From: Amoebophrya sp. A120
Taxonomy: Eukaryota; Protista; Dinoflagellata
NCBI GenBank assembly: GCA_905178155.1
Contig: CAJINV010000004.1
Span: forward strand, 1,240,881 to 1,304,880
Length of the DNA: 64,000 bases
Reading direction: 5' to 3'
Both the position numbers and the translations under genes were made by a program. Under the pieces are notes generated by a model, which worked only from the letters and a program-made list of their open reading frames with translations, made no database searches and was not told the DNA's origin. Shown piece after piece: positions 1,007 to 48,899 of the stretch. The number at the start of each line of letters is the position of its first letter. The first letter of the stretch is position 1.

Positions 1007-4000
1007 CTAGCAACACCCCTCCAAACTGCCGATCTCCGAAGTTGGTGCGTTGCTTGCATGAACAAGGCCTCCAGACCCTTGGCCGCCCCGTATCCTGTGT
1101 AAAAGCGTCCCCACCTCCCCCTAGTCAAGTTGGGACGAGCTCTGCAACGCAACTCCCGAAGTTTGGGGAGTCAACAAGCATATAAAAAGTTTTTCTCTGT
1201 ATTGTAGTGCAGGTTGAGGTTATAGCAAGGACCGCCGGATCACAAAGCCAGCTCCTTATCCTCCTGTAACTGTTTACAGCATTACTACACATAGAATAAT
1301 TATCCAAAACACGACTGAATCAGCACGGCTCTCCTGGGCGATATGTGCAATTTTGTTACGACTCTTCCTGTAATAATTGCATCCAATCTGCGCGACTACA
1401 ACTCTGGGCTGGGAACGTTTTTGCTCAGGATACCGCCTCCGGGACCACGTTCGATGTCCTCGATGACAACCCCGGGTTTACGCGTCGACCCCGAATTGTC
1501 AATCCACGTGATCTATGAAGTGTAAAAATGTCTGGGTCTGGAAGAATCCAACTTGTCATGCTGATTTCGGATTCTAAAAAAATCTGTATTGCATGAGCAG
1601 CCAAGAGGATCCAAGTTTTGCTACACGGAAAGAGCATTTGTCATGCAGATTAGGCATCAGGAAGCCCTCTAAAAATCTGTGATGCTAGGGCATGCATCAC
1701 AGACATCAGGAGTCATGCAAAATGTGCATGACAAACCTGGCAATCTTCCAGACCCAGACATATTTGCATTTGATATGATCGGGGCTCGTGTCGTGCTCGA
1801 AGGTGGTGGGTTGTGATTGTCACCAGCAGCGCTCGCGGTCGTTGTTGTGCTAGAAGAAGAGGCGGGCCCAGAAGTTCTTGTACTGCCATTACCTCCATCC
1901 CCCGTGCTGGCCAGGAAAAACGGCCCCTTCCGCATTTGCTCCCGGGTCAGGAGCAAATCGCGCTCCAACAGTCTGCCGGAATCTTGCGCGGCTTCCAACA
2001 ACGCCTCCCATGCGTCCTGACCTTCGTCCCAACCCCCAGAGTTGGGCCACTGCCTGTTCTCCCCAACTGTCGGGTTGTCTCCGTAAACAAACCCCGACTT
2101 GTATCGCAAACACTGCGCCGTCTCGTGCCAAATGCAACCATTCGCATACTGTGTGGGAGACTGGTCGTTTTCCCACCACTTTCGCAGCACGTCATTCAAC
2201 CTCGTCCACTTTACCTTCGCGGAGAGAATTTCCTTGTTCCAGGTCCCGAGCAACACGTGGCCCACCGACGCGGACACGAAAAACGAGGGGGCGGAAGAGA
2301 GCGGGACAAGTGCGGTCAGCTCCCGGAGTTCGTCCAGGTACTGCTTTCCCCGTTGTTTCGCGTGGCCAACCTCTCCCCTCAAATTCTTCGACACCCCGTC
2401 CTTACCCATCAAATAGGTATCGTAGCCGTGCATCGCGACGAAGTGCCGCACCTTCACGTTGGCGAGGTTGTCGGTATTGCACACCTCGTTGCGGCTGTTC
2501 GGCAGGAAAAAGAGGGCGTTTTTCCGGGGGAAAAAGCACGTCCAAGAAGCAGGGGCGCCACCAGTTGCAGTAGTACTCGTTCCGCGCACATTTTCATGGT
2601 CACAGCCGGACTCGATTTTCGCATTCCAAACGGGCGCACCGACCATGTAATCCTGTTCCAGTCCGTTCGGAGCGTAAGTTGTTGTATCACCATAATTCTC
2701 GTCGTCCATTTCGAGTGGCGTGTTTGCCGCGAGCACTCTCGTGGCGCGCGCGTCGTTTTTCAAGTACCCCGGGGTTGCGAACGCCGCACTCGGGGGTCCA
2801 CGGACGTACCAGGCAGAGTCCTGCAGGATGCCGAATTTTTGGAACGGCACTTCGTGCAGGATTCTGTCCACCTCCGCCTCCGTTTCGAAGCCGCCCCGGG
2901 CGGTCGCGTCCTTTTTCTGCGCCAGAAACTGCAGGTTCAGCTCGTTGAAGACGTGGAAGACCGTGCAGGCCTGCAGCCCCGTGCCCGCCGCGCCGGCGGA
3001 ACTGCCGGCAAGGACGATTTCGAACGGTCGTTGCGCGAGCGTGAACGACGCACCAGGAAGTGCAAGGTCGTTCTGCGCCTTTTGTTGATCCACCACCTCC
3101 TGTCGGACGACAGCGTTCCGGATTGCGGTGGTCACCTGTTTGATAATTCGGTAGCCGTGGAAGAAGACGCCGTCACCCGTCGCGGCATCGGTATTGTAGT
3201 ACCCGACGTCGCTGTTCCCCGCCCACTTGTCACTGCTGCAGTAGGGGAAATACACCTTGTTAAAGTCGTATCCAGGAAAAAAACTGTGTAAGTGTAAGCT
3301 TCTTGGAGGAATAGCATCACAAGTTTGCTCTGCATGACACAGAAAACCTGTCATGCGTAGCTAGTACGTGAAAACATGCACGAAAATTGTCTCTGATGCA
3401 TGTCCAGCATGACAAGTGTAACAGTTTTGCATTTTCTGCAACACAAATTTACACTTACACAGTTTTTTTCTTGGATAAGTCGTGAAACACCAACTCGGTG
3501 TTCGTGGATCCGAGCAAGCGGTCGGCGTCGACGTCCATTTTGAAGCTTTCTCCGTATTACAATGAAAAATGCCCCCAGCCCAAACTTGGCAGCGTTTGTA
3601 TTGCAAACCTTTCCAATAGAAACATTCCCCGTCTTGCATATCTCAGCATCACGAATTTTCCATGCTGAATAGCTCAAATTTGTGTTGCGAAGGAGCCCAA
3701 CAGCAGGCGGATCTGTTTTGCACAAGGCACCTTGCGCACCTAGATTCTGCATCAGAAAGCCTCGCAATCCTTTCATGCAAGACAAAAAGCTTTCATTATG
3801 GAAACTTTGCATGCGAAACTTCTGCAAAGTCCGGGGTGAGCGCATTTTTCACTGTAATACTCCCTTCGACGACTTCAAGCCTTCGCTTCGGCCGTCTATC
3901 AAGTGCAAATATGTCTGGGTCTGGAAGAGTGTGGACTTGTCATGCAGGTTTTCCATGACCCATGAGGTCTGGTCTGGAATGCGGGACCTAGCATGACAGA

Positions 4001-4974
4001 CTCTGTGAGGTCACTGTCATGCCTATCCTGCATGAGAAACTCCCTCTTAACTTGTTCGAAAGTGGGCAGCTTTTGGCGCTCATGCAATACAGATTTTTGC
4101 ATGATTCAGATTTAGCATGACAAGTTGCGATCTTCCAGACCCAGACATATTTGCAATCCATACCGTCGTAGCTGCTGCGAGTCGGCGCGTCCCCACCAGA
4201 CTGGAGGTAGAAGACCCACCTGCCGACAGTGGACAGGTAATCAGCTCTGTCCAGCGCCAGACAGGGGTTCCAGTAGAAAACGTAGTCACTGCCGTCGTTG
4301 CACTTTATGTCGTTGATCGTAGTTCCGCTGGCTTGCGGTTGTTGTTCCAGCGAAAACAAATACAGGCGGTTCTTTTTCGCGCTGCTGTACTGATTCCCGG
4401 GATTCACGTCTTTCAGACGGTTGCAGGCGCTTTCCAGGCTGTCCGCTTCCTTTAGCTCGATCGTGACCGCCGCAGATGAAGCTGTGGCAGCTCTAGAAGC
4501 CTCTACTTCCTGAAGAAATGCTCGCTGGTCTACTTCTCCCTCTACTTCATCTCGTGTCGTCAGCGTCGTATCTGCTTCCGTTGTTTTTGCAAGTGGTAGT
4601 TCCGTTGTACTAGCGCCTTGTGGTTGTTCATCCTGACGACCACGACTAGCTCGTGGTAGTTCTACAACTGCGGTCGCGCCTTTTCTTCCAAAGGTTTTGC
4701 TCTGTTGTAGCAACGTGATTCTCGTCTCGCCGCCGCGGGTGGTGTGGTCTTCAACACGACTCTGCGTTCTTTCAGAGAACGAGTTGTCGGTCCTTTCTTG
4801 CATCAATCCCCGCGAGGACCGTAATGCGGTGGCAGTGGTCCTCTTCCATTCCCGGAGATTCTTATTCCGGCTCTCAACCTGCACTAGGGAAAATTGAAAA
4901 GTAGGCAGGAACGTGGATGAAAATAAGTAACTCGCCACAACCCGACCAGATTGGTGCGAAGATGTCCGCAACAT
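1007..4974 (-). CDS. Notum / pectin-acetylesterase-family secreted hydrolase, paralog 1 (6 exons, 5 TIR introners)
   Basis: Motifs CNDGS..FY, PYCSSDKW, FHGYRI, LAGSSAG (nucleophile elbow), DSAW and GHVLL; hydrophobic N-terminus. The frame is continuous after removing elements 3897-4162, 3555-3859, 3269-3477, 1514-1775 and 1091-1432 plus 5 nt each. Ends ...LEGCC* (last exon chosen by match to the paralog's GGCC*). Confidence 0.8.
1091..1432. mobile_element. TIR introner family B (342 bp)
   Basis: TATCCTGTGTAAAAGCGTCCCCACC...GGGAACGTTTTTGCTCAGGATA; flanks CCCCG/CCGCC (3/5). Removing 5 extra nt gives the GCC-ending frame. Confidence 0.7.
1514..1775. mobile_element. TIR introner family A (262 bp)
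   Basis: TATGAAGTGTAAAAATGTCTGGGTCTGGAAG...CTTCCAGACCCAGACATATTTGCATTTGATA; direct repeat TGATC; restores RAPITWIDNSG. Confidence 0.92.
3269..3477. mobile_element. TIR introner family D (209 bp)
   Basis: TATCCAGGAAAAAAACTGTGTAAGTGTAA TIR; repeat AGTCG; restores VFHDFNKVYFPYCSSD. Confidence 0.92.
3555..3859. mobile_element. TIR introner family C (305 bp)
   Basis: TATTACAATGAAAAATGC TIR; repeat CTCCG/CTCCC; near-identical to 33186-33490 in the opposite orientation. Confidence 0.9.
3897..4162. mobile_element. TIR introner family A (266 bp)
   Basis: Family A TIR; repeat CCGTC; restores SSYDGRSEG. Confidence 0.92.
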
Positions 4975-5856: not shown

Positions 5857-8518
5857 TTAGCAACACCCACCGCCTCCCACTTCCCCCTCTCCTCCTGGCG
5901 GCCCCATGCGAGTCGGCTCCGCGGGGGCGTCGCTCGACTCAAAAATGGTTGTATTTCCTCCCGCTCCGCCCTGTTCTTTCGACACGCCGGAATTGGGAAT
6001 CCAAATCACCGGAGGCCGCTTGGGCTTGGTTGTAGCAGTACTTGCTCCTCCAAGATTAATCCCCAGCGTCGTCGTTGTTGAAGTTGTGGTCTTAGTGGTC
6101 GTTACAGTTGTGGTGCTCGTAGTCGTCGTAGTCGTCGTCGTGCTTGTAAATTGTTCCCGCATGCGCTTCTGCGCTTTTTGGAGCTTTTTTTCCTTCTGCT
6201 CGCTTGCATCGATTGCTGGAGCAAGGACTTCGTTTTTCCATTTCTCCTCCTGACACCTCGGCTCTTGCTCCGGAAGACCGCGGTTTTCCCCCAATGTTGG
6301 ATTGGCGCCGTACAGTCTCATCTGCGATGAGTGTGTGTCGGCTAGCATCAGACAGTCAACACAGTTCTCGTCGTTTTGAAACCAGAGACAGCTGTCGGCG
6401 TACTGTGTGGGGGCACCGTCGGTTTCCCACCAGTTGCGGACCACTTGATCTAGTGACTTGTCCATCACCTCTCCGTCCCACAATACCGTGCCGCCATACG
6501 CAGACAAGAATAACATTCCGGACGACGCGGACACGAAAAACGAGGGGGCGGAGGAGAGCGGGACGCTGGCTGTCAATGTTTTCATTTCGTCCAAAATTTG
6601 CCACCCCCGTTGTTTCCGTGGATTCAACTCAGTGGACGTCATTGGTTGCAGTGCATATTCCATTCCGACGTCATTGGTCCATATTTTATCGTCGTATCCA
6701 TGATTCAAAACGAAGTGCCGCACTTTCACCATGGCACTATTTTCCACGCCACACAATTTGTTCTCCTTGTCCGGCAAGAAAAAAAGCGCGTTTGTCCGCG
6801 GAAAAAAACACTGCCACGTATTTCCAGCCCCGACTTCTTGCGGACACCCCGATTCCAGCTTCGCGTTCCAAGCGCTTGCGCCGACCACAGCCTCCTCTTC
6901 TGCACCGCTCAACTTCTTGTTGCCCACTTGGGCAGTGACGAAAGGCAATAGCTCTTTGGCACGACTTATCAAATGCGAAAGTGTCTGGGTCTGGAAGGAT
7001 GGAACTTGCGATGCTTCCTGTGGGTCACACAAAAATCTGTGTTGCGTGATCACCAAAAGTTGTTTTTTTTTGACCAACACGAGCGGGAGTTTCTCATGCA
7101 GGATAGGCATGATAGACACTTCGCAGAATCTGTCATGGTAGGTCCTGTATTCCAGATGTCATGGGGTATTTTTGAAAATATGCATGACAAGTCTGCACTC
7201 TTCCAGACCCAGACATTTTTGCATTTGATATGACTGTCATTTTGCAACTCCTCCGGCGTTTCGTATTTTGCGGTTGGTGGCCCGCGCAACGACCAGCCAG
7301 AGTCCTGAAATATCCCGAACTTTCTAAATGGGGCTTGCGTGGTGAGAATTTGTTTCACATCATCGTCCGTCACCAACGGTCCCTGTTCTTGTTTTCCATG
7401 GACATTTGCCAAAAACCGCGTATTCAATTCGTTAAAAACGTGAAAGACCGTGCAGGCCTGCAGCCCCGCTCCGACGGCACCGCTAAGGGTCCCAGCAAGC
7501 ACAACTTCGTACGGCGTGCTTCTACGTTCCTCCTGCGATTGTACCTTGGCCCGCGTCTCCTCTATCACGTTGCGAACCGTGGTGGCCACTTGCTTCACGA
7601 TTCTGTGGCCGTGAAAGTAGATTCCATCGCTGAACCCTTTGTCAGTGTCCCCGGACCACTGGTCGCTGCTGCAGTACGAAAAGTGGATCCGGTTGAACGC
7701 CGAAAAAACGGTATCGTCATAACCTGGCTTGAACGGAGGGAAGAGCCAGAAGTGGTTGTTCCTGATTGTTCGCTCGTTGGAGCTCGTCGTCTTCACCGTG
7801 TAAGTTCGGGAATCTTTGTAGTTCTGAAGTGTGGGTGCGCTGCCGCCAGGCCAATCCAGATACAACAGCCACTTCCCGAGGCTGGAACCAATCCGAGCTT
7901 CAGATTCGAACGCACGGCAGGGATTCCAGTAAAACACGTAGTCACTGCCGTCGTTGCACTTCAATGCTGAGTTCTCGATGGAAAACGCATACAATTCGTT
8001 CTGCAGCCTGTCCCCGAGGCTGCCATCGTAAATCTCGGGATTGTTTTGTAACTGGATAGAGTATCACCAGGACGCAGTTTGATGGTCTTCGCGTCAGTTC
8101 CTTTATTTGTCGTCAGTGTAGCACGACTCGACGTAGTTCTTTGGCGCCCCTGCTGGTGCTGCTGCTCCTCTTGCTCTACTACTTTCTTCTCGTGCATACT
8201 AGCAGTCGCAGCAGCTTCCGCTTGTTCCGCCAAAAGCAAAGCACTTGAGGACCCGCTGCCACTTCGGGTGGTCCTCGTTTGCTCGGCATCGTCCCGCGTC
8301 TGGGTAGTTTCCCTTTCCTCCCATGGAGGCGACCGCGTGATTTTTCTCCTCATCTGGTCACGATGTCGCGCATTCTTCCTTGTTGTTTCACTGTTCACGA
8401 CCTTCAGCGACAACTGAAGCGTGGGCAGAAACAGGGAAAAATAGAGCGCTACTCGTCGAACGCTTCCGCTTAGCAACATGACGCTTGGAGGTAGAAGCGG
8501 ATTTTTAGTTGAGTTCAT
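5857..8518 (-). CDS. Notum / pectin-acetylesterase-like paralog 2 (probably catalytically dead; apparent frameshift near 8055)
   Basis: Collinear with paralog 1 (CNDGSDYVFYWNPC, YCSSDQW, CFFPR.NALFFLP, VPLSSAPSFFVSAS). GSSAG is replaced by GTLSG. One introner at 6967-7230. Confidence 0.72.
6967..7230. mobile_element. TIR introner family A (264 bp)
   Basis: Family A TIR; repeat CGACT/TGACT; restores QNDS(R/H)AKELL. Confidence 0.92.
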
Positions 8519-8752: not shown

Positions 8753-11013
8753 CTGAAATAACATTGGACGACGACGACACGAGGTGAAATTTTGATCCTA
8801 GAGCAAACCTGCATTACAAATTTTGTCTCCCATGCAGAGCAAATTTGTCATGCATTTTATGAACTAGTGCGATGCTTTTGCAGTTCATAAGCTTCGAGGT
8901 CGCGCTGACGACGAATGTTCGCAGCAAGTTCCTTCACCCTTCGCGCGTGCTGGTGCTCCGACCGGTTCTCAGATTGGTCACGACTATGCACCCTGCCCCC
9001 CACAAGCTTTTCCGCCTCAACCACGAACGGCAGGTTGTGTGCTGTCAGTGTGGAAGCACAAAATCCGACGGCTGCTACGTCTCCATCCTCCAAATGCTGC
9101 GGCGGAATGAAATAAATCTCATCCCCCTCGGAGAACGTGGTAAACTCGCAAAATTCGGCTGTTTTCCAAAACAATGCGCCGCCATTCCGTACCCGCGTTT
9201 GCTCTTCTAAAAGTACGCCGCCAAGGAAGAAGGGCTGAAAGAACATTGGACGACGACGACACGAAGTGAAATTTTGATTTTCATCGTAGGGGTAGCGAGC
9301 GATAAACATCGACGCCGACACATACCACGACATCCATCGAGCCAGCATACATCTTCCCACCAAGCCACGAAGCTCTACCAGCCTCCGAGCAGACGCACGA
9401 GAAGGCGCGTCCAAAATCGGGGCGCAGTTGCTCCATCAGTAAGAAGCATCGGTGACCCGCCGCCGGCTGCCATAGTCTGGGCAAACCTCACTCCTTCCAG
9501 GTAGAGGCCGACCAGGGCCGGACAGCGGTGATTTTCGCTCGACACACGCTGGAGCAGCGACAGGAAAGTACTTGAGTGGAGAACTTGCACTTGACGACAA
9601 CGAAAGCAATACAACAATTTGATGGAGTTGCGGGCCGAAACGGAGTGAATCCCCTCCGAGCGAAAGAGTGATCCACAACGAACCGCCATAGTCCGGACTG
9701 GGGCGCCCTCGTCTGGGGTCCGTTGTTGGTGATTTAAAGCAGCCCTACCTCGGCGGAACACGCAACGACATCCACATCAACAGGCAACAACAGATAGAAG
9801 TGGGGCACGCAAAAGCACGGAGCGAACCAGCATGACCAAATGCCGTGCAGACGAGACCCGTCTCTCCTTGAAACCCTGGAGGCCAAGAACCTCGTAACCC
9901 CTCAAGAGGTACAGCAACATCGATGCAGAACAAGGGATACGAAGCAGCACCTACCGGCATTGTCACACATCCCCTTCCTACTACACCACTGCCCAACGGT
10001 ATTGATCAAGCGAGAACGCGACCACGAGGGGCAGGCGCTGGGGAGCAAGGAGCAGAGATTGCAGCACCGCGAGGAGGGATTGTTGGAATTCTCGTCATTT
10101 CGCGGAGGGTTCGCGAATTTCTTTTACGAGTTCCACAACATCGCCCCACTCCTTCAGCTTATCACTACAAGGCCGGCGCAGCGCGTTCTCGTCGGTAGCG
10201 ATCGAATAGCTGGCGTCGTCAAGGATCTCCTCCGGCAGACCGCGGAGGGCCGCAGTTGGTTCGTGCAGGTGGAGGCGATCCAGCAGGCACACGGCGAGAC
10301 GATTGACAAAGCACGACCACTCATTGTCAGCCTGATCTATTCGCCTTTTGGGGGCGATTCCGCACTCCCCATCCTGATATCTAGAATCGAAGCGGCAGCG
10401 GAGGAGGAGGCGACCACGCGTTTCCAGGACCGGCACAGGCAGACACGACGGGAAATCGCAGATGTCCAGCGGGAAATAGAAGTGTTGCGAAGCAGCAAGC
10501 GCGTAGGGGACACGGGAGGGACGCCGGACCATGGCGTAGACGACAGCCAGCCTACTACCATCTGGAACAGCGGACAGCTATATAGGACCCCGAGGTAGGA
10601 AGAACCGAGTCCGCGCAGCGGACCTAGAGCAACAGTGTGAAGCGGCAAGGAAAGTAGACCGCAGCCTCCCACCCGACCGCAGGTGACGGAAACACCAGAC
10701 ACAGCCCCCAGAAGCGCGTTTGCCTCCAGACACGACCGGGCGACTCTTTGATGCCGAGGGCGCAACCCGGAGACGCAGCGAAATTGGAGCACGCCGCTGG
10801 GTCTGAAGACGAGCGGCGGAGGCTATACGCCGGCGCACATTCCGGCTTGCCGGGTTACATCTTTAACCCCCAGATCCTGTAGCACCGTCGGGAAAAAGCA
10901 ACCGCAGACGAAAGCGGGGGAGATTAAACGCCGTAACCACGCGCGACAGCAGCAGTTCCTCTTCTTCTGAAATAACATTGGACGACGACGACGACACGAG
11001 GTGAAATTTTGAT
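8753..11013 (+). repeat. Three dispersed ~45-bp direct repeats (8753-8796, 9235-9278, 10967-11013)
   Basis: CTGAAA(T/G)AACATTGGACGACGACGACACGA(G/A)GTGAAATTTTGAT seen three times. Confidence 0.85.
9840..10598 (+). CDS. Hypothetical ORF with coiled-coil C-terminus, possibly part of a mobile element
   Basis: 252-aa ORF in a GC-rich block between repeat copies 2 and 3, on the opposite strand to all neighbouring genes; no recognised domain. Confidence 0.3.
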   Translation: MPCRRDPSLLETLEAKNLVTPQEVQQHRCRTRDTKQHLPALSHIPFLLHHCPTVLIKRERDHEGQALGSKEQRLQHREEGLLEFSSFRGGFANFFYEFHNIAPLLQLITTRPAQRVLVGSDRIAGVVKDLLRQTAEGRSWFVQVEAIQQAHGETIDKARPLIVSLIYSPFGGDSALPILISRIEAAAEEEATTRFQDRHRQTRREIADVQREIEVLRSSKRVGDTGGTPDHGVDDSQPTTIWNSGQLYRTPR

Positions 11014-11528: not shown

Positions 11529-14500
11529 TCAGGCTTTGTTTTGCTTTTTCTTTTTCCCCCCCTTTTTGAGTTCTTTCCTTTTGCTAGTGAGCAAGACCGC
11601 TTTGTCTACTTTGTCCTTCTCCGTTTTCTCGATTCTCTGCAGCAGGCGCTGGTGCTTCTTCGGCATCATCGCTTTTCTCCTCGCCAAGTCCTCCGCGGCT
11701 TCCCGTTCAGCCTTTGTCAGCTTCTTCTCGACAGGAGGCGCTGTACTAGTTGTGCCTGCAGCTGCAGCTGCTTTCTCTGCTGCTCCTGGTCCTGCTGTGT
11801 CGTCTTCATTTTTCAACATCATCTCTGAGCTTGCTGCTTCCGGTTTATTTGACGCTGCATCTTCAGCCTCCTCGTTCTCCTCTGCGCTTGTTGAGCTGCC
11901 ATCGTCCTCCGCATCATCATCGTCCTCTGCCTCCTTCTGCCTCGCGAACTCACTGGCCCAGACGCCCTTGGCTTCGGCCTGCAGTTCCTTCAGAAATTGT
12001 GCTTCGTGGTCTATTTCCTCGTCGTTCTTGTCAGCTGCATTGACGTTCTTCTCCGCGCCTGCGAAGGATGAACTGCTCGAAGATCCACCGCTGAGCAGTT
12101 TGTTCAAGATTTCCCGTCTCTCCGGCACGTAACCCTCCTCCTTGTCGTCCACAAAGGGGGACAAATGCGGCGGGCAGATTTTGTCCGGCAGGTAGGGATC
12201 CACCGGGAGTTTCAGGTTTTCGTTGAAGGAGTCCAGCACCCACTGCGGCTGCACGTATTCCCGCCCGGGGATTTGGGTGAACTGACTGGAGGGCCGGTCA
12301 ATGATCTGGTGCGTGATCTTCTTGTCGTTCTCCTTGAAGGGAGAGGCTGGGAGAAGCGACCAGCCGACCTGTGGGATTGGATTTCGGTTTTTTTTCACAT
12401 AGTGCATTTATATCCAGCAAACAAAACCAAAACACCTTTAGCTTTACTTCTTTTTTCCGTTTTCATCACTCTGTCTGTCATCATGCAAAAAAATTCCTCC
12501 ATCATTTCACAAGTATAGATACCTCCGCCCCACCGGACTTGAGCACAAAGTAGATGGAGTGGAAGGGCACTTCCCTTTGGATAAAAACCCGCATGCCGGA
12601 AAAGACGCCTTTAGAACTACTTGGCTGCTTCAGCAGCTGTAGTTGCTGAACTTCTTCGGATATCAAATGTAAAAATGTCTGGGTCTGGAAGAGTGCATGT
12701 TTGTCATGCTTGTCTGGCATGAGTCTTGAATCTGTCATGCACGTTACCCAAGAGCTCCATTTTTCTGCGATGCAGAACCGCAGTTTGTCATGCAGAATAG
12801 GCAACACCTAGAGGCTCAGGAACTTGTCATGCTGAGCCAGCCTTTGTGGCCCCATCATGAGACGCCACCCAGCATCACAAGTTTCCAGACCCAGACACTT
12901 TTACATTTGATATCGGACACGGCTGCGAAATCCTGGATTGTCGCCGCCTCCACCTCGCGCTTCTCGTTCTGTCGCTGCTCTTCGGTCTGCTGAACCTAAT
13001 GTATCAATATTTTTGCCATGTTGCACTCGCACGCTTCTTGCGCTAGTACATTATCTAGAAGTAAGAACTAGCATTCTTGTACAGGAGCAGTCTACCCCGC
13101 ACGTGTCAGTCGTTACTTATCTTCCTACAGGTGCAAAGATGTTGAAAATGGTTATTTTCTCTCATTAGTAGTGTGTGCAACTACAGGCTTCTTGTACTTC
13201 AATAGTAAATACCTTCTTCGAGTCCGCATTTTTGACGTAGAATTTCGCCATGTCTGCGGCATCCCGTTTGTAGTTGAATTTTGGTGGGTACTCAAATTTC
13301 GCCTCCGCGAAATATCAACTATAAAAATGTCTGGGTCTGGAATTGTCATGCTGATTTTGGATTCTAAAAAAATCTGTATTGCATGAGCAGGAAAGAGAGT
13401 CCAAGTTTCGCTACACGGAAAGAGCATTTGTCATGCGGTATAGGCATCAGGAAGCCCTCACAAAATCTGTGATGCTAGGGCATGCATCACAGGCATCAGG
13501 AGTCATGCAAAATGTGCATGACAACCCTGGCAATCTTCCAGACCCAGACATTTTTACATTTGATACGAAAAGCTTGAAGTTGATAAACTTCAGCATGGTG
13601 CGGTAGAATTCGTTGAAGGTGCCCATCACCTGTTTTTTGAATTTGAATAATTTTCCGGGTCTTTTCATCAAGATTTTTCTTGTCTTGTCGACTTCCCAGT
13701 CGTGCAAGATATAAATATTTATTTTTCCAAATGCGAACAACAGACCTGATGAACAGCACTCATTTTCTTGTCATGCTGCAAATGAGGCAAAGTAAGGAGA
13801 TGATTCCGATCATTTTTACTGCCACGAGCACAAACAGCAGAAAAACGAAGCAATTTATCATATCGTAAGTACCCGAAAGTCCACCTCGGCCGGCAGTTCC
13901 TGGGTGTACTTGTGCGGCACGAGCCAGGTGACGGTTTCCCCCTGGATGTCTGCTTGGAAGTAGTAGCCCTTGATGCTCGCAAAGCACTTCTTCAAAGACT
14001 TTGTCTGGATCACGTACAGGAAAAATTCGTGCACCAGCCTGGCACTCTCCTGCACCACGTCGCCACGGATTTCATTTTTCTGGTCGGTTGGCAGGCAGTC
14101 GTAGAGCGCGACCATGGAAAGCGAATCATCCAAATCCCGGATCGCGTCGCTGAAAGTCGGGTAGCGCTCGCGGACCTGTGGTATGGTGATGTTCGAAATT
14201 CTTGTCTTGATGTGTAATGCAGCATCACAAAGTACGTCGTTGGTTCCTCAACACACTACATCAGTATGCAATGCGAGTCGTGGTCTTCTTGCTCCTGCTC
14301 GATTCCATGACACATCGAAATCCCGTGCTGCAACCAAGGGAAATCGAAATGAAAATAAGTAAGTAAGCCCAAAATAAACCTTCGAGAATGAAAAAAATAC
14401 CAGATGATGCAGCGTGTATTCCGGTTTGTTTTCCTGCACCCGTTTCGCGGTGTTCTTATCCCCCCTCCCCAAACATTTTTTGTACTTCTTCATGTAGGTT

Positions 14501-37700: not shown

Positions 37701-39045
37701 CTGACATTTACAAATCGTATACAAAATCATCTCAGTAGAACAAGAAGCAACACCAAATTATAAGCAAGGAAGAAAAAACACAATACTTTGTACAGGAAGC
37801 TGGGTATCCCGTAGACCGCCCACTGATTCCAAGAGATTTTTCCCGTACTACTGCCAAACTGCTGTTTTCTCGGAACGGGAGTGTTATTCCCTTTTTTGTC
37901 CGCTTCCCTCCGCAGCTCGCTAGCGTAGCAAACCGCCAACTTCACCGCTTCGATGCAAAGAACCGCCGACGCGGTATGGATTGCAAAAATGTCTGGGTCT
38001 GGAAGAATCCAACTTGTCATGCTGATTTTGGATTCTGAAAAATTCTGTATTGCATGAGCAGCAAAGAGAGTCCAAGTTTTGCTACACGGGTGTCATGCGG
38101 TATAGGCATCAGGAAGCCCTCACAAAATCTGTGATGCTAGGGCATGCATCACAGACATCAGGAGTCATGTAAAATGTGCATGACAAACCTGGCAATCTTC
38201 CAGACCCGGACATTTTTACATTTGATACGCGGTGTTGTATTCCAACTTCCCGCATCAACTGTAAAAATGTCTGGGTCTGGAAGGTTCTGACACTTGTCAT
38301 GCACGTTTTGCACGAGCCCTGATGTCTGTGATGCATGCCCTAGCATCACAGATTTTTTGAGAGCTTCTTGATGCCTATTCCGCATGACAAATGCCCTCTC
38401 CGCGTAGCAAAAATTGCATTCCTTTTGGCACTCATGCAATACAGATTTTTCTGGAATCCAAATGCAGCATCACAAGTTGCATTCTTCCAGACCGAGACAT
38501 TTTTACATTTGATATCCCGCTGTCCTCTTCCGAAAACCGGATCAACAGCGTTTATCCTGAGTAAAAACGTACCCACACCAGAGTTGTAATGCAGATTTGC
38601 AAAAACAGGAAGACTTGTAATGCGCATCCCCATGAGATTCATTTCCAATTGTGTTTTGGAATTTGTGATGCTGTGAACAGGATGAGCAGATGAATCTGTG
38701 ATGCGGCTGCACTTGCTAACCTGCACTACGCTGCAGAGTGCAACTTGTCATGCGTGACTCACAAAACTCCTAGGTTTGTGTTGCAAAATCCCCATCCTGA
38801 CTCTGGTGTGGGTACGTTTTTACTCAGGATAGCGGTCCCAGGCTGCTCATCGTGACGTAGTAGACAAAGACCGCAATGTGGAGGGGGGAAAGACCAATGA
38901 TTGCATGAGGTTCCATACTGATCCCGCCTGTGGTCGTGTTGCTGTTTTTGCTGTCTCGTGGTCCAGAATGTTGTTGAAAGTAGCGCTGCAAAGAGGACCA
39001 GAGCTGGCCGTGCAAAACGGAGGCTGACGTCGTGGGCGCGACCAT
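34768..39045 (-). CDS. SLC35A-type nucleotide-sugar transporter with long C-terminal tail (7 introners, 2 GT-AG introns)
   Basis: LLIRFS, YNTASAVLCIEAVKL, IPSFLYAILNNL, QWVALVLL, SGVVNEFLLK, YFDNIVKGFA. GT-AG introns 37609-37793 and 35479-35598; the tail exons are less certain. Confidence 0.88.
34873..35137. mobile_element. TIR introner family B (265 bp)
   Basis: TATTCTGCGGAAAGACGTCCCCA / TGGGGACGTTCTTACTCAGAATA; repeat AACTC. Confidence 0.85.
35195..35411. mobile_element. TIR introner family D-like (217 bp)
   Basis: TATCACAGGAAAAAAGTGTTACAGTTACAC / GTGTAACTGTAACAGTTTTTTCTCGGGATA; repeat ACGCG/GCGCG. Confidence 0.85.
36369..36624. mobile_element. TIR introner family A (256 bp)
   Basis: Repeat ATCCT; restores FAGEDVNISF. 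Confidence 0.92.
36689..36943. mobile_element. TIR introner family A (255 bp)
   Basis: Repeat TTGCA/GTGCA; inverted relative of 12661-12912; restores KGFA(S/R)CVQV. Confidence 0.92.
37975..38227. mobile_element. TIR introner family A (253 bp)
   Basis: Repeat CGCGG; restores YNTASAVL. Confidence 0.92.
38253..38514. mobile_element. TIR introner family A (262 bp)
   Basis: Repeat TCCCG; left end reads CAT instead of TAT; restores DSGKLEY. Confidence 0.9.
38553..38831. mobile_element. TIR introner family B (279 bp)
   Basis: Perfect 32-bp TIR TATCCTGAGTAAAAACGTACCCACACCAGAGT; repeat GCGTT/GCGGT. Confidence 0.93.
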
Positions 39046-41349: not shown

Positions 41350-43173
41350 TCAGCATGCATTCAGTAGTCTCCGCCACTTCCATGTTTCGCCGTTTCTGTA
41401 TACCCCGTCATCTTCCTCTTCGTCCACGTAGACTATCGACAGCCATATCTTCCCCTGCGGAAACAGCTTAAACTGCTGCACATATCAAAGTGAAAGAAGC
41501 CCCCTCCCCATATTGAAGCGGAAGCTTCTGTTGCTGGATTTGTGTACACACATCAGATTTGTCTTGCTGTAGAAGACTGCAGGCCTATAGGAAGCCTGAG
41601 CGGAGAGGTTTTGGGCAAGGCGCCGAGCATGGCAGACGTCTAGTCTGCACGGCCAACAGCATCACAAACCGCCTGCAGGATGCGGCGGAGCCTGTGGAGT
41701 TCCGTTCTTGCAAGACAGAGACGATTTGTGGTCACAAATCAGCATCGCAAATTTTTTGAAAGGCGCCTTTTCGATATGGGGAGGGGCGATTTTTCCTCAC
41801 GATAGCACGTCATCCATCTCGATGATGCTCTTCACGTCCGTAGAGCTCAACTATCGAATGCAAACATGTCTGGGTCTGGAGGGTTGGAACTTGTGATGCT
41901 GCATTTGGATACCAAAAAAATCTGTATTGCACGAGCAGCAAAAGGAGTCTAATTTTTGCTACGCAGCAAGGGCATTTGTCATGCGGAACAGGCATCAAGA
42001 AGCCCTCAGAAAAACTGTGACGCTAGGGCATGCATCACAGACATCATGGCTCATGCAAAACGTGCATGACAGGTCTCAGAACCTTCCAGACCCAGACATA
42101 TTTGCAACGCATATCAACTCAAGCGACCCGATCTCGCTGCTACCAAGCAGATCTTGGGAGCGACAGGTGATGTGCAGCTTGTCCTCTTCCTCAGTGGGGT
42201 CGAAATTCAGCTGCAGACACTCTTTCAGGACCTGATATTAACGGAATTTTTGTTATTGTTTTTCATTCTACTATAATTTCATGCACAAACACAAACAACG
42301 TCGACATTATTTGATGCAACAGAAACACGCTTGAAACTGAGCTCCCCGGCGCGCCACGAATTCGTATGCTACACGTCAGACGCATCTTTTCCTTCGCAGG
42401 CACTATAGTAGTATACCGCCCCGCTTCCCGCACTCTTGTGCACCCTCGTCCTTACCCTTTCGTTGCTCGCGAGGCTGAGTTCCACGAAGAGGTCGTTCGT
42501 TTTCATGATAGATGACGCGGATAGCTCCTCGACTTTGAAAACGTATACCTCTATTGGCCGTTCGCTTGTCCCAAGTCCGCAGCAGGCGTACACGTCCTTC
42601 ATGCTAAATCTGATAGAGGAGAGTCGCAGAGATGAATTATGTTGACACGATAACTGTACTAGTCGTAGTCCTAGTCGTACGTAGTGCTTCTCGAATAAAC
42701 AAAATTACATTTTTCATTCCGAATAAAAGAACCTGAAATAGCTCCACGGCCGCGCAAACAAAACATCCAAATTCATGAACTTACCTGACCAAAACCTGGT
42801 TTTCGATGCCGAGCAGGATCTTGATTCTTTCCCGCATGATGAAAAGCAAAAAGAACGCGAAGAGAATCAGCCCCGAGCTGGCGAAAACATTCAAATGCAC
42901 GCCGATTTCCGCCAACCCAATTCCCACCCACTCAAAATATTGCCCGACGTTCCAGTCCGGCAGAATGGCCAACACCAGGAGAAGAAACACGAAGTTCGCA
43001 ACGAACGCAAGGGTGTAAAACGCAAGTAACTTCGCTTGCAAGTGCTGGCCCAGTTTCCGTGCGGCGGGGGTAGGCAGCCCGGTCAGGTAGAAGGGGAGGA
43101 TGACGATAGCAAAGAAGCCGAAGGTAATGATGAGCAGCAGCCAATCCTGATATTCCACCGGGAACGAGGACAT
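41350..43173 (-). CDS. Membrane protein (3 N-terminal TM segments) with C2-like C-terminal domain
   Basis: Hydrophobic exon 1; NDLFVELSL...RVRTRV, LHITCRSQDLLGSSEIG, GKIWLSI. GT-AG introns 42610-42784 and 42232-42416; two introners. Confidence 0.7.
41483..41804. mobile_element. TIR introner family E (322 bp)
   Basis: Ends ...GATATGGGGAGGGGCGATTTTTCCTCACGATA; repeat GCACA/GCACG; restores MDDVQQFKL. Confidence 0.87.
41852..42113. mobile_element. TIR introner family A (262 bp)
   Basis: Repeat TCAAC; restores SLELSSTDV. Confidence 0.92.
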
Positions 43174-44016: not shown

Positions 44017-47000
44017 TCAACCCCGGCCTCCGCCTCCGCCCCGCCGGCTGTTCGGAGGGGTTTTCTGCGCATTCCCTTTTTTCTTGTTTTTTTCCCGCAT
44101 TTCGGCCTCCCGTTCCTGCCGTTCGCGGAAGCGTTGCCGGCGTTCCAAGCGCTCGGCCTGCTTTTCGCTTCCGACGCGCATCGAGACAAAGAACAGCTTC
44201 CACATAATCAGGGCCTGATAGTACATGACGATCATTTTTGTATGTGATTTCTTGGTCTACTTCCAAAGCGTCATCAACATGGCAAACCGACACGTCGATA
44301 AAAACGTGAAATCGCTATCGCAAGATGAAAATGATCTAGAATCTTCAATTAATACAATTATTGTTGTGCTGCCGTCCTTCCAGGGGAATATCAACTTCGA
44401 GTTCGCGCCCCACTCTGCGTAGGGGCCCCACCAGCGCTGTTCCCCACATTCTATTTGCTCTGCCGCGGCCTGAGCGAGTTCTATCCCAGTGACCCGGTGC
44501 GCGTGTACATCCCACCATCGATTCGACCGGATGTCATACTCTATGTCACGGTACTGGTAGATCAGCTGAATTCGCTGGGTGGCATTGCGGTTACTGTTTT
44601 GGATACAAGTTTTTAGGTCAGTGTCAGTTTTCTCAACTGGGAGTTTGTTTTCATTGCATACAGTCCGACATTTTTTGTCATGTGCACTATGGTTTACCCT
44701 TAGAAAATGAGTTACTCGTGCGTACCACAATTCATATGCGCGACATGGGAAAAAAATTATGTCGATAATACTTCTCATAGCCATCCTGCAACTCCTTCAG
44801 ATCGCCCCGGAGAAGGCTCCAAGATTCCGGCGCTCGGGATCCCAGCAGCGAGGCGAGGCTGTTTTTCACATGATCACAAAACATCAACTCCATGTGTTCT
44901 ACTAAAAATACCTCGAGCACGCAACTACTTCTGAGCCCATTGAAGAAGCGGTCGGTAAATTTGCAAGAACCGTGAGCAACAAGCAGTACTAGCAGTGCTG
45001 CTCGTTGCTGATGTTTCTGCGCATCTACTTTGTCCAAAAGCAAGCATCCAAACAATTACCATGCACAACTATTATTTGTTTCCTACCTCTTGATCCACCC
45101 GGGTAGCGGCGCCTTCCCGTGACTCGCAATCTATCAAATGCAAAAATGTCTGGGTCTGGAAACTTGTGATGCAAGAAAGGGAAGAGTAGGGAGCTCACTG
45201 TAATGCGCTGTCCAGCATGACAAGTTTTTCCGTGGTTCAGAGTTGCGTAATCCGCATGAGAAACCACGTTTTTGAATGACAGATAGGAAGCGCTTTTCGC
45301 GGGCACGCAATACAGAGTTCAGAGTCATGCCAGACTAGCATGACAAATCTGGCAATCTTCCAGACCCAGACATATGTGCAGTTCATACAATCATCCGCGG
45401 CACGATCTGGTGCAGCGTGGTCTCTACCCGCGAGGAGGTTTATCGAAATGAAAAAACCCCCCTCCCCCTATCAAAACGAAAATCTGTGTTGCGGGATTTG
45501 CGTACACAAATCAGCTTTGTCTTGCAGTACAGGACTGCAGGCAGATGCAAAGCCTGGAAAGGGGCGCTTAGAGGTGGCCGCTTCGCATGGCAGACGTCTG
45601 CCCTGTTGGCACAATAGCACTACAAATCGCCTGTGTAATGCGGGAGGAGGGACCTGGCTTTGCTCTCTTGCAAGACAGACCCTATTTGTGGCCGCAAATC
45701 TGCATGACAAATTTTCAGAAGGATGCGCTTTCGATATGGGGAGGGGGGATTTTTCCTCACAATAAGGTTGGCACGATCCCGACACTGGGCCGATCCTCGT
45801 CATCTTGGATTCTGTTCCGCATCGCCAGCCAGTTGTTGGATTCCGCGACCCGGAAAGTGAGCATTTTCCTATACGCCGGCTTTTCCTCCGGCGGTTGTGC
45901 CGCCGCAGCTCCGGTTTCCTCCCGCGACTTACCCCCTCCCGTGTATTCCTTCGACAAATGTTGCTGCGCATTTGCAGCAGCAGCTTCCACCCCCATCGCG
46001 GGCACCTCGTAGTAGTCTTTTTTCTTATTCCGCGTCCCCCGGTTTTCTTCCAACTGCACCACTCGCGGCGGGCTCTTCACCGCCGCCTTCTGCCCCGGCG
46101 CGGCCTGCTTCTTCGGCGGCAGGGAAACGGAGTTGGGGCAGAAGAACTCGGTCCCGTAAATGGGCGGGGAAAGGAGTTGCCGCACGTTCAGGGAGAAAGG
46201 CGGGTCGGCCGAGGTGGTAGTTGTAGTTTTGTCTAACGCGTCAAATTATGAACTGCAAAAATGTCTGGGTCTGGAAGAATGCGAGATTTCTTTGTCATGC
46301 TGATTTTCCATGACCCCTGACTTCTGTGATGCATGCCCTAGCGTCACAGATTAAAATCTTTTTTCGTAGAAAAAAGATTTTACTTCCTGATGCCTATACC
46401 GCATGACAAATGCTCTTTCCGTGTAGCAAAAATTGGACTCTCTTTGCTGCTCATGCAATACAGATTTTTTTAGAATCCAAATGCAGCATCACAAGTTCCA
46501 ACTTTCCAGACCCAGACACTTTTGCAATCCATACAAATGCTTCTGAAGTTGTATCGAACACCACATGGAAGTGGTGGTACCAGGAAAGCAAGCTGGTCAG
46601 CAAATAGACAAAAACCAACACCTGCTTTTTCACAAAGTGCCCCCCCGGATACAAGATCCCGACCCCCGCGGCCTCGACCGCCGACAGACCGCCGGGACCG
46701 AACACTTTGCCCGCCTTTTCGTCGATCTTCCTCGCCGTGCGAAACAGTTTCAACCCAAACACGATGGTGGTCAGGAAAAACACGAAGGTTAAGACGGTCT
46801 GCAGCTCGTCCGGGGTCGTTAGGGTGTTCAGATTGGCTGTCGTGAGCCGCGCGACCAGGAACAGTATTGGGTAGAAGCATACGACGGCGAGGAATATGTG
46901 CCGCATTTCCGCCCAGGAATATTCTACTTGCTCGTTGTCGAAATGAAGCGATACGCTCTTCACTTCCCCCTCTTCGTCGTAATCTGCTAGTTTTTCCTGC

Positions 47001-48899
47001 TCGTTGTTCTTTCTCTTATTTAATAGCGTTGTGTTCTTCTTGTTCTCCAATGCTTGTTGTACTCCCTCCCCCTCCGAGTTTGATCCTGTTCCTGTAGCAC
47101 CACTGCCCGATGAACCACTGGCGATTTTGCTCGCGATCTCCACCTGCTGGGCAAACGCTTCTTCGTCCAAGCAGCCCCAGTTCTTCACCACCTCCCGGGG
47201 GAGACGGAGCCAGTGGTAGGTCCGCCCGACGTTCCGGTTGTCTAAGCGGCAGCCGATGGAGATGAAGAGGGCGATCAGCAGGAGCGGCGTCCAGGCGGAG
47301 GCTTGCAGTCCGACAAAGTACATGAGCACGTTCCCGGCGAGGAGAAAGAGGGCGACTTCCTTATCCAAGAAAAAAACACCATCACAATCACACTTGGGAA
47401 GTTTTGCATCAGAAATTTGTCTCGCATACTAAATTTTTCTTGTATTGCAAAAACACAAAGGGAAATCGCCTACAACTCTTGACTGTGATGCAGTTTTGCG
47501 CATGACAAAAATTTTTGTATTGCAAAACTGCGCAAAAGTGATTGTGATGGTGTTTTTTTCTTGGATATTCCTTCACCCACATGTATTTCGAGGTCCAGCT
47601 GTTCCCGCACAACGCCATATGCACTGCAAAAGCATCGTACTAGTATAAATCGCATGACAAATTAGCTCAGCAGGAGAAATGAAATTTGTAATGCGGGTTC
47701 AACTTAACAAAGAAATTTCTAATGCAGAAATGCGATCGGTACGAGTACGATACTTTTGCAATGCATAAGCCACGATGGGCAGCAACACCGTCGCGGAGAC
47801 GATCCAGAACCAGGTCAGGTACCGCACGAACACCGGGCGCGGGTCCAACCGCAGGTACCAGGCCAGGCTGCTCGGCTCCGGGAACTCGTAGCTGTAGGTG
47901 AGCCACGTAAAGTCCCAGAGCGACGCGCACACCAGCGGTGTCCGGTCAAACTGGTCGTTGCCGAAAAGGGGCAGCACCTGGCTGCCGGTGGTGGAAGAGG
48001 AGAAAAAGGTGAAGAGAAACCGGAACAAACAGAAATTCAGGGCGGGTCTGGTGCAGTGGCTCCAGTCGGCGGTGCTGATACCGAGAACGGAAACGAGAAG
48101 CCCCACTTCAATCAGCAGATTGTCGTAGTCCCTGATAAAATAATTTGCAAAACATCTAGAAGCGAGATTTATGCTGCTCGTCTAGAAGATGTTGAAAGAG
48201 GTTGTATCTACTATACACTTCAAATTTTGACACGACCGATGCCGATCATCTATGACCATCAAAATGTTGAAAGAACAGGTTGTAAACAAATAAAGTTGTA
48301 CTTCCAAAACAGCATGGGCCCGGAAATTGCGTTCACTGCTGCGTACACGATGGTGTTAAACAGCAGAATTATCCGCGGCCCATTGACGCCGAGCTCATAG
48401 TCGCCCAATAGACTGAGCAAGATGCTCAAAACGAGGCCGCTGACGAGGGCGTAGCCCTGGTTGATAGTTTAAGAAATTATGATTGTGGTGATTTATTCTG
48501 CAACCTCCCTGTGTGACGGTGAGTTTGATCGGTGAACAAAAGCACAAAAAACTAAATGAAGCCGCTCCGACAATCAAGAAGTACTTACTAACTTACCACA
48601 ATATCCTTCATCGTTGTCGGGCTCAACCAGGACGGAAAGACCGCATCCAATTTCGAACCCAGAATCCCTTGGCACCCGTACAGTCCCTCCACATGCTGCA
48701 ATACCGACGCGAAGGCGAAGAGGAAGCAAACGCCAAGAATTCTCGTGATCAGAAAGGATGTCTCCGTGGTCGCCGATATCCTGTCGACAACATCCTTGGC
48801 CGCTTCTTGTTCTGTAGAAGCCGTGTCTTGCTCATTTTTGTTCTTCCCCCGGGCACTTCCCGGGGCGCTACGAGGCGTAGTCGTCGCGCTGGCGCTCAT
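44017..48899 (-). CDS. Lipase maturation factor (LMF)-like ER membrane protein (some exons unresolved)
   Basis: RILGVCFLFAFASVLQHVEGLYGCQGIL, DNLLIEVGLL, FCLFRFLF, LWDFTWLTYSYEFPEPSSLAWY, IYQY...RWW resemble LMF motifs; five introners. Confidence 0.65.
45132..45387. mobile_element. TIR introner family A (256 bp)
   Basis: Repeat CAATC; restores PRMIASHGK. Confidence 0.9.
45441..45764. mobile_element. TIR introner family E (324 bp)
   Basis: Repeat AGGTT; interior related to 41483 and 33613; restores VPTSSRVE. Confidence 0.9.
46247..46533. mobile_element. TIR introner family A (287 bp, carries an extra hairpin)
   Basis: Repeat CAAAT; inverted relative of 13313-13565; restores SEAFDALDK. Confidence 0.9.
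47362..47567. mobile_element. TIR introner family D-like (206 bp)
   Basis: Perfect TIR TATCCAAGAAAAAAACACCATCACAATCAC; repeat TTCCT; restores WVKEVALF. Confidence 0.92.
47618..47767. mobile_element. TIR introner family F (150 bp)
   Basis: TATGCACTGCAAAAGCATCGTACT / AGTACGATACTTTTGCAATGCATA; repeat CGCCA/AGCCA; restores PIVALCGN. Confidence 0.88.

Follow-up and report, generated by a model that had tools for sequence, protein, structure and literature searches.

The introner elements of Amoebophrya sp. A120 were described by Farhat et al. 2021 (PMC7789003), in the parts of that paper on which we draw, as 29,850 copies in 1,954 families with 3-5-nt direct repeats and ends made up of TAT, seven less-conserved bases and at least three As. 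They are spliced as non-canonical introns with no clear splicing signature and with variable splice positions, and the same parts of the paper report no transposase in A120. All nine of the predominant A120 non-canonical sites in its Table S4 begin with N-T. Site calls in that table may mirror the choice of the aligner within the duplication. A120 keeps 83 of 89 spliceosomal proteins together with U2, U4, U5 and U6, and neither U1 snRNA nor snRNP27 was detected, again as given in the text consulted of PMC7789003; in yeasts, loss of snRNP27 goes with +4U donors (PMC10581693). Frames resembling Copia/Gypsy occur in one A120 family that has inverted ends (PMC12130899).

Several other systems share parts of this picture, as far as the portions of the sources consulted extend. 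The introners of A25 (PMC7789003) likewise have inverted and direct repeats, their main non-canonical sites begin with TT and their repeat with TTA; they differ in their motif (TTA-RR...G), in shorter introns and in fewer copies. In Fritillaria borealis, introns that stem from MITE-like elements, and have inverted ends and duplications, are removed by a changed U2-type spliceosome (PMC11282704; 10.1101/2025.08.15.670264), and in the introners of Polarella and Symbiodinium the splice site can straddle the duplication and the element, as in class 12 of Roy et al. (10.1101/2020.10.14.339549), where the terminal G of a 5-nt duplication combines with the first element base. Euglenid nonconventional introns, too, have non-canonical ends joined by inverted repeats, and duplication-like repeats at their junctions.

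The elements analysed here, in a 64,000-nt stretch of A120 DNA (the window), are the published A120 introners: they are located in A120, have TAT-N7-AAA ends and a direct repeat, fall into repeated families and are removed free of GT-AG. An exon at 31932..32429 on the minus strand (PSMD12/RPN5; PF22241, E 2.9e-27) is 100% identical to protein P0001 of Amoebophrya sp. A120, and 75% identical to A25. Their end motif has been in print since 2021, and by itself adds nothing beyond that description. A fixed register of removal and a strand-dependent holding of bases were absent from the text passages searched, a scope outside which lie figures 3 and S19-S25 of Farhat et al., the PMC12130899 datasets and Roy et al. 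as published in Current Biology, any of which may bear on this. Neither an interior motif common to the families nor families devoid of an A-run are mentioned in the text examined of PMC7789003.

Element ends, families and probable transposon origin

TAT-N7-AAAAA matches the window 48 times (25 on the plus strand, 23 on the minus strand), whereas Markov-simulated sequences (orders 1, 3 and 5; 20 each) average 2.8-5.3 matches and never exceed 10, and other spacer lengths (2-6, 8-13) give 4-10 matches each. The motif put forward in a sequence-only reading of this DNA is therefore real, and the starts which that reading quoted for families A-G are present. Ends of 28 automatically called elements account for 36 of the 48 matches, and ten are without a partner end; the matches at 1432 and 57472 are ends of looser copies, namely a B-like introner at 1091..1432 (duplication 3/5) and a decayed family-B copy at 57472..57746 in apparently non-coding DNA (one spacer 3 nt short; duplication 4/5). 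The window element ends (n=56) start with TAT in 55 cases and carry AAAAA at positions 11-15 in 37 and AAA at 11-13 in 51. The family-A end was unmatched in viral contigs.

The elements are repeats of 150-350 bp that have inverted ends, are flanked by 5-bp duplications and lie within exons. Among the 28 window elements the duplication is exact in 20 and 4/5 in 8. Exact duplications flank, for example, family-A introners at 1514..1775, 3897..4162, 12661..12912, 13313..13565 and 17603..17854, a family-D introner at 3269..3477 and a family-E introner at 22405..22717; 4/5 duplications flank introners of family C at 3555..3859, A at 6967..7230 and 50772..51041, E at 41483..41804 and F at 47618..47767. 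Further called elements belong to family A (41852..42113 and 45132..45387) and family E (45441..45764). An exact 5-bp repeat was found for 314 of 377 elements, and TAT starts 506 of the 598 ends of 299 candidates with a 5-bp duplication, in whose calling positions 1-15 were unused (window and 147 loci); duplications of 6, 7 and 8 bp were seen in 11, 5 and 2 candidates in the window and loci L001-L029. The elements are thus short and non-coding, with inverted ends, a target duplication of fixed length and many copies, as expected of MITEs, and both orientations relative to genes occur (150 vs 136 pairs). By eye, no recognisable transposase frame was seen in the long copies L065:6792-7763 and L015:505-1608 (about 0.7 Mb covered). 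The IS3EU ends TAYGG..CCRTA (PMC12730594, in the part consulted) resemble families G and H, and the TAY..RTA termini are present here, but membership of IS3EU was rejected because the duplication is 5 bp instead of 6. A 5-bp duplication is shared with hAT5 (PMC12730594, same part), with no transposase here for placement.

Orphan ends were also surveyed (nine 5', fourteen 3' and nine unclear); many belong to copies whose partner end contains small insertions, and one case in the window was mis-oriented. Two half elements of family F lie on the minus strand: that at 8787..8889 retains just one end, the one towards the 5' side of its minus-strand gene, followed by a canonical-looking acceptor near 8754, and that at 16413..16512 has a decayed end triplet, with a canonical-looking acceptor coming after it near 16374.

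Conservation by position was compared in the window and in 147 further loci (630 kb) from one second assembly, for which the best RPB1 match reached 74%. Since these loci were retrieved with a family-A pattern, which inflates the conservation of family A, the position statistics were repeated on the non-A families, where pairwise divergence (pairs non-independent, ends aligned ungapped) is 2-3% at positions 1-3, 15-29% at 4-10, about 7% at 11-15, 18-21% at 16-30 and 8-25% in the interiors. Positions 4-10 are thus freer than 1-3 and 11-15, as the sequence-only reading had it. Its inner block is not the best-held one in family A, in whose window copies positions 16-30 diverge by 2-4%, against 5-16% at 11-15.

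That reading also proposed one terminal code shared by unrelated families, of which TAT alone proved universal. The consensus at positions 11-15 is AAAAA in families A-E, AAAAG in F and AAATT in K, and the A-run is missing from four of the eleven families (H TCAAA, I CACAA, J TCAAG, G TCAGG); for family G its absence had been noticed correctly. Nor are the families unrelated: an interior motif, TGT(C/G)ATGC, is present in all eleven (86 occurrences in 8,059 element bases vs 10 in 55,971 bases outside), and positions 1-10 of 57 of 76 family-F ends are also found on family-A ends. Judged by these sequences, the element families are related to one another. Depth over the elements in the X5 contigs is thousands of times that of unique DNA.

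Removal from RNA and the register of the cut

Removal was followed in contigs whose RNA status is presumed (X1, X2 and X4; none is on record as RNA), and which also skip GT-AG introns. Five of the 15 joints listed for RNA-type contigs omit an element plus 5 nt, and the other ten are GT-AG introns. Because the addition of the X5 contigs filled the joint table (15 listed, 169 more) with repeat cross-matches, joints there were taken from the piece table; the raw-read runs X9-X11 matched 5, 2 and 0 reads. The five joints remove the family-G introner at 29580..29895, which has no A-run and an exact duplication (29574>29896, X2), two family-A introners, one in the PSMD12/RPN5 gene at 31121..31372 (31115>31373) and one with a long hairpin at 32883..33135 (32877>33136; fold -105 kcal/mol, z -6.4), a family-C introner at 33186..33490 (33180>33491) and a family-E introner at 33613..33933 (33606>33933).

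Contig piece counts indicate the removal of seven further elements, for a total of 12 of 30 window elements. In X1 and X4, 120 nt between pieces correspond to the loss of 34873..35137 (family B, A-run broken at both ends and still removed) and 35195..35411 (family D, duplication 4/5), each with 5 nt. Pieces at 36363 and 36945 sit 60 nt apart in X1, X2 and X4 around two family-A introners at 36369..36624 and 36689..36943, the latter with a 2-nt insertion in one inner repeat. Contig pieces also bear on the family-A introner at 37975..38227, first of a tandem pair, on the family-B introner at 38553..38831 (the X1, X2 and X4 piece begins at 38831) and on the family-D introner at 47362..47567; an X2 piece covers exactly 46534-47356, from the family-A introner at 46247..46533 up to the next element. 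The nucleotide-sugar transporter gene, with an exon at 36945..37604 on the minus strand (PF04142, E 3e-24), holds seven introners, and taking all seven out leaves a single open frame of 720 codons.

Removal of +2, +5 or +8 nt is indistinguishable by reading frame and is distinguished by the joints, where mismatches in the duplication bound the cut: after base 3 or later at 33613, base 4 or earlier at 36689 and base 2 or later at 38553. At introner 33613, protein P0001 agrees only with cuts after bases 3-5. The 20-nt micro-exon at 38233..38252 (minus strand), adjoining a family-A introner at 38253..38514 whose end on the intron's 3' side is without the terminal base (CAT read inward), is retained in the X2 contig and skipped in X1 and X4, whose skip joint is cut exactly after base 4. 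Four contig joints fit one register, a cut after base 4 of the duplication, so that the introns read N-TAT...ATA-NNNN. The form with the exact skip joint is out of frame and employs another donor 7 nt away as well; it may reflect noise or a decision of the assembler.

These introns do not have the GT...AG of canonical U2-type introns: both are present in 6 of 321 oriented copies, G at +1 has a frequency of 0.30, AG at -2/-1 occurs in 22 of 321 (no preference), and there is no sign that the duplication is used as a source of G or AG. In the portions of the sources consulted, the introners of Polarella and Symbiodinium need a G at +1 and a final AG, and therefore insert only at permissive sites, whereas the A120 copies show no such preference; Fritillaria borealis prefers the ends AG-AC and AG-AT, whereas the first and last intron bases are free in A120. 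The CAG/CTG at +4..+6 and -8..-6 and the pyrimidine-purine junctions of the euglenid introns are likewise not seen in N-TAT and ATA-NNNN.

Strand-dependent constraint at the ends

Gene direction was predicted by codon scores, which were trained on the window and were right for 25 of its 28 elements and wrong for none. It gave 321 gene-oriented copies, 293 of them from the second assembly, which is not necessarily A120. At positions 1-2 there is 1 change in their 5' ends and there are 15 in their 3' ends, and at position 3 the numbers are 7 and 1, against about 12 changes per position expected from duplication mismatches. Only +2U, +3A and -7A are held and their mirror bases decay (Fisher p=1.8e-4; 24 changes in total), a result that is stable at four orientation thresholds and is found in the non-A families alone (p=1e-3); within family A alone it is not significant (p=0.19). 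On the sense strand, T>C and A>G occur at free positions and at none of the held ones. Position 9 is also asymmetric (0 vs 10, p=0.002 among 30 tests). This constraint on TAT points to RNA splicing, and since only these three bases are held, TAT likely mimics the GTAT donors of this genome in a form lacking the G (canonical donors have GTA in 10 of 11 and GTAT in 7 of 11). A at -7 is found in only some canonical introns, so a branch role for it is a guess.

The A-run behaves otherwise. Of the 321 copies, 168 carry A5 at positions 11-15 of the 5' end and 153 carry U5 at those of the 3' end, and non-A bases at positions 11-13 (5-6 vs 3-9 of 273) are symmetric and near the background rate. The idea of a splice signal in the form of a U-tract, set a constant distance from the 3' end, is unsupported, as the run has decayed to the same extent at either end. 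G-U-compatible mismatches are not in excess (130:128, 47:56, 172:157), which leaves selection on RNA pairing undetected. The proposal of a recognition signal for excision or for a shared transposase can thus be kept for TAT on the side of splicing; the A-run is strand-neutral, and no transposase was found. We infer that the A-run may serve transposase binding or DNA mobility.

A probable double duty of the end motif

As a whole, these observations are best explained by an introner end that likely does double duty, in DNA mobility and in splicing, a reading to which we give a probability of roughly 0.6. The elements would be related non-autonomous DNA transposons moved by one kind of transposase, which would cut at TAT...ATA with a 5-bp duplication and bind the inner repeat, from the A-run onward, together with the repeated interior motif; positions 4-10 would form a spacer whose length is fixed and whose sequence is free. 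The RNA, as shown for 12 of the 30 window elements, lacks the element and 5 nt, one copy of the duplication, which restores the reading frame with no need of GT or AG. With the cut after duplication base 4, giving N-TAT...ATA-NNNN, a relaxed U2-type spliceosome could take TAT as donor positions +2 to +4 (GTAT minus its G), the A at -7 would be the predicted branch nucleotide and the 3' cut could be set by distance; pairing of the two ends probably aids splicing. As both ends are alike, a working intron would result in either orientation.

Were the motif a transposase signature only, with splicing reading a sequence-blind hairpin of the two ends, one would expect the ends to pair strongly, as they do (median of the 30-nt end duplex over 150 copies, -36 kcal/mol; one element at z -6.4), and the indifference to +1 G and to AG, as well as the removal of family G and of the copy with broken A-runs, would follow. 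This is unlikely, since neither a DNA enzyme nor a symmetric stem can explain held +2U, +3A and -7A with decaying partners, and at least two left-right mismatches at positions 4-10 in 233 of 377 copies mean that the outer stem is often weak. The identity of the held bases with +2/+3 of the genome's own canonical donors also speaks against a non-spliceosomal nuclease-ligase that recognises TAT and the pairing of the ends, a mechanism put forward for the nonconventional introns of euglenids. Such an enzyme would accommodate the dispensable terminal Gs of GT-AG, a staggered cut (1 nt on one side of the stem and 4 nt on the other) and the non-detection of U1 snRNA in the text consulted of PMC7789003, but it is made improbable by the spliceosomal proteins and snRNAs that A120 keeps (same source) and by the spliceosome of Fritillaria, which processes transposon-derived non-GT-AG introns (PMC11282704, in the part consulted).

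A splicing signal comprising the whole TAT-N7-A5, with its U-tract at a fixed 3' distance, would account for the low divergence of positions 11-15 in old non-A copies (about 7%), and the inferred register puts the U-run at -19 to -15. Pyrimidine tracts are often found around these positions of introns. The similar frequency of the run at both ends, the symmetric, near-background changes at 11-13, the four families that are without it, although family G is spliced, and the presence of a pyrimidine tract beside AG in only 2 of 11 canonical introns (by eye) nevertheless make this very unlikely. Spread via an RNA step, by reverse splicing or integrase-type insertion, has been weighed as a source of the symmetric ends, and 5-bp duplications are typical of integrase-type enzymes. 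It would also agree with the lack of a reported A120 transposase in the text examined of PMC7789003 and with the Copia/Gypsy-like frames of one family with inverted ends (PMC12130899, in the part consulted). We regard it as quite improbable: inverted ends, a fixed duplication length, both orientations and oriented interior repeats are features of DNA transposons, and plain reverse splicing would not produce intron and element boundaries that differ.

Building on the double-duty reading, we tentatively suggest that the A120 spliceosome may need neither terminal G and read only an N-U-A donor plus a single A at -7, in which case a symmetric transposon end would be a complete two-way splice signal, giving a scarless intron at any site. 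A question left by the 2021 paper is how an intron whose first and last bases vary can be cut out precisely; the register, together with +2U, +3A and -7A, makes this question testable with existing A120 RNA reads, and offers gene finders the rule of removing N-TAT...ATA-NNNN. Should this rule hold, it would show to what degree the specificity of a spliceosome can be relaxed under transposon invasion. If the N-U-A/-7A reading is true, it would supply the splicing rule that the non-canonical introns of A120, tens of thousands in number, have so far lacked and describe a portable, self-removing insert, and the same logic is predicted in A25, where TT/TTA starts would likewise put U at +2 and A at +3.

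The terminal motif and its published account

The motif TAT-N7-AAAAA, which the sequence-only reading had proposed as a terminal code, is real, with 48 matches in the window against means of 2.8-5.3 and a maximum of 10 in Markov simulations; alternative spacers from 2 to 13 gave 4-10 matches each. An inverted-repeat scan of the window yielded elements 150-350 bp long, and 28 were called automatically (flanking 5-bp repeat exact in 20, 4/5 in 8), to which the looser copies 1091-1432 and 36689-36943 were added manually. Ends of the 28 elements account for 36 of the 48 matches, ends of looser or decayed copies for 2, and 10 are partnerless. Counting inward (TAT at positions 1-3, spacer at 4-10, A-run at 11-15, inner repeat at 16-30), 55 of the 56 window ends start with TAT, 37 carry AAAAA and 51 have AAA at 11-13. 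Both element orientations occur. A decayed family-B copy at 57472-57746, in apparently non-coding DNA, has one end with a spacer 3 nt short, the sole such case seen in the window. Two adjoining minus-strand genes (1800-4900 and 5800-8300), paralogue-like by eye, carry introners at differing sites.

The PSMD12/RPN5 exon lying between elements matches a protein labelled Amoebophrya sp. A120 at 100% identity, and the elements show every tested feature of A120 introners. Given this match and the account of A120 introners by Farhat et al. (PMC7789003), which gives their ends as TAT, seven less-conserved bases and three or more As, the end motif as first noted is already in print. The accessible parts of that paper describe variable splice positions, report no clear end signature, leave the splicing mechanism open and report no U1 snRNA, no snRNP27 and no transposase for A120. 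According to the available text of PMC12130899, A120 introners trace back to diverse elements, of which one has Copia/Gypsy-like frames flanked by inverted ends; the available portions of PMC9860276 and PMC11453091 add nothing on the motif. No account of the splice register or the strand asymmetry described below was found in the literature within reach of the search, which excluded figures and some datasets.

The elements work like MITEs. Their ends resemble the TAY ends of IS3EU, whose 6-bp duplication they lack, and they have only duplication length in common with hAT5 (both from the accessible part of PMC12730594). Other dinoflagellate introners still require G and AG, unlike those of A120 (Roy et al., bioRxiv 10.1101/2020.10.14.339549, available text), and the fixed intron ends described for Fritillaria (10.1101/2025.08.15.670264) and euglenids, in the portions accessible, differ from those of A120.

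Families and the decay of element ends

Scanning metagenome contigs with a pattern taken from family A yielded 147 loci (630 kb, a single assembly), which carry the same families as the window, the best copies being 93-95% alike. Elements were called by an exact flanking repeat and an inverted match at positions 16-30 only. A 5-bp flanking repeat returned 299 candidates, and 506 of their 598 ends start with TAT; repeats of 6, 7 and 8 bp returned 11, 5 and 2 (window and L001-L029, the first of these loci), and a 3-bp repeat recovered these elements again at an offset of one base. Eleven TAT families were obtained; 10 further singleton families were dropped as false calls.

Family-weighted information is ~1.4-1.5 bits at positions 1-3, 1.2 at position 13 and 0.2-0.4 at 4-10. 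The A-run is AAAAA in A-E, AAAAG in F and AAATT in K, and is lacking in G, H, I and J. The prediction that positions 1-3 and 11-15 are held better than 4-10 was borne out in the non-A families, on which the search pattern imposed no selection: their copies diverge by 2-3% at 1-3, 15-29% at 4-10, ~7% at 11-15 and 18-21% at 16-30. In the window copies of family A, the inner repeat is better kept than the A-run.

The families had been described as unrelated, a description we do not retain. One interior motif, pointing inward from each element end, is present in all 11 and ~60-fold denser inside elements (86 in 8,059 bases) than outside (10 in 55,971), and in 57 of 76 F ends bases 1-10 also occur at family-A ends; judged by these sequence features, the families are therefore related. 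Among 13 pairs of close copies (window and loci), the spacer diverges by 17.6% and the interior by 3.7%, and the spacer takes a few recurring variants common to A and F. This fast divergence and recurrence suggest end exchange between copies rather than plain decay.

Removal from RNA and the register of the cut

Contigs from three sequencing runs (X1, X2 and X4) align to the window and skip introns; that these runs are of RNA type is an automated guess, also supported by the skipped GT-AG introns. The raw-read runs left the window uncovered. Among the 15 joints listed for X2, at least 10 GT-AG introns and at least 5 elements are skipped, every listed element joint removing the element plus 5 nt, and family G, without an A-run, is among those removed. 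In the transporter gene, piece coordinates from the three runs fit the loss of all seven elements, the middle pieces being inferred from record counts, and this loss leaves a single 720-codon frame (PF04142).

Where the duplication copies mismatch, the joint reveals which copy the mRNA keeps. Element 33613 is cut after base 3 or later (X2 joint, with the A120 PSMD12/RPN5 protein P0001 in agreement), 36689 after base 4 or earlier, and 38553 after base 2 or later. At the tandem pair 37975-38514, X1 and X4 join the outer ends with loss of a 20-nt exon, and the two unrelated duplications brought together place the cut exactly after base 4. The intron therefore consists of one duplication base, TAT...ATA and four duplication bases. 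In Table S4 of Farhat et al., 9/9 predominant A120 non-canonical sites begin N-T, which fits this register, with the reservation that such calls may carry an aligner bias.

The skip form breaks the reading frame and also uses a second canonical donor 7 nt away. The skipped element lacks its terminal base; that loss and the tiny exon could explain the skipping equally well. Across 37605-37790 and 37971-38515 of this nucleotide-sugar transporter, X1 and X4 contigs represent the out-of-frame form (20-nt exon absent, canonical donor 7 nt downstream used) and the X2 contig the in-frame form, the contigs giving no proportions. Two family-F half elements (8754-8889 and 16374-16512) retain only the end toward the gene's 5' side, and a canonical-looking acceptor follows each; they are candidates for hybrid introns that pair an introner donor with a normal AG.

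Bases probably held by splicing and the proposed machinery

Codon scores gave a direction to 321 of 377 elements, 28 in the window and 293 in the loci; the others were unclear or at an edge. Among the oriented copies neither G at +1 (0.30) nor terminal AG (22/321) is preferred, and both occur together in 6. Changes in the 5' triplet number 1 (positions 1-2) and 7 (position 3), those in the 3' triplet 15 and 1 (Fisher p=1.8e-4), with ~12 expected per free position from duplication mismatches. The asymmetry persists in non-A families (p=1e-3), in the loci only and at four thresholds, and is not significant in family A alone (p=0.19); position 9 is likewise asymmetric (0 vs 10 changes). The bases held are intron +2U, +3A and -7A.

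Anatomy, 5-bp duplication, precise removal and asymmetric decay are shown, and it is on the machinery that explanations diverge. In the favoured reading, a relaxed U2-type spliceosome would take N-UAU for a donor and use the A at -7, which may be the branch point. GTA opens 10 of the 11 canonical donors and GTAT opens 7. SNRNP27K loss accompanies +4U donors in yeasts (PMC10581693, available text), and snRNP27 was not detected in A120 according to the accessible parts of Farhat et al. (PMC7789003). Removal by a non-spliceosomal nuclease-ligase is a less probable rival. The U-tract at a fixed distance from the 3' end, first proposed as the splicing signal, fares poorly: positions 11-13 show 3-9 changes of 273 at either end, and the run lacks the asymmetry of the triplets, with A5 at 168 5' ends and U5 at 153 3' ends. 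Structure alone could also be the signal, and pairing of the ends may perhaps guide splicing; the hairpin fold of one element is strong (z -6.4), and G-U-compatible mismatches between ends are not favoured. The acceptors of the 11 canonical introns (28135-44355) mostly lack a pyrimidine tract and are A-rich ahead of AG. A 44-47-nt repeat in three copies 90-95% alike (8753-8796, 9235-9278 and 10967-11013) resembles, in each, a minus-strand canonical intron 3' end.

The ends themselves would be the product of a shared transposase whose requirements are TAT, a spacer fixed at 7 bases and the inner repeat; roughly one helical turn separates the two held blocks, as in bipartite transposon ends. An RNA-based route of spread is a less probable alternative. 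Two long copies have intact ends, L065:6792-7763 (972 bp, inside an RPB1 gene, with ~700 extra bases) and L015:505-1608 (1,104 bp), and a transposase frame was seen in neither. Of the two readers originally suggested for the motif, excision machinery or shared transposase, the former gains probably splice-held bases and the latter stays conjectural.

Beyond the end motif, which is real and already known as reported, the main value of the analysis lies in a testable splice rule met along the way; if true genome-wide, this rule would matter considerably more than the motif itself.
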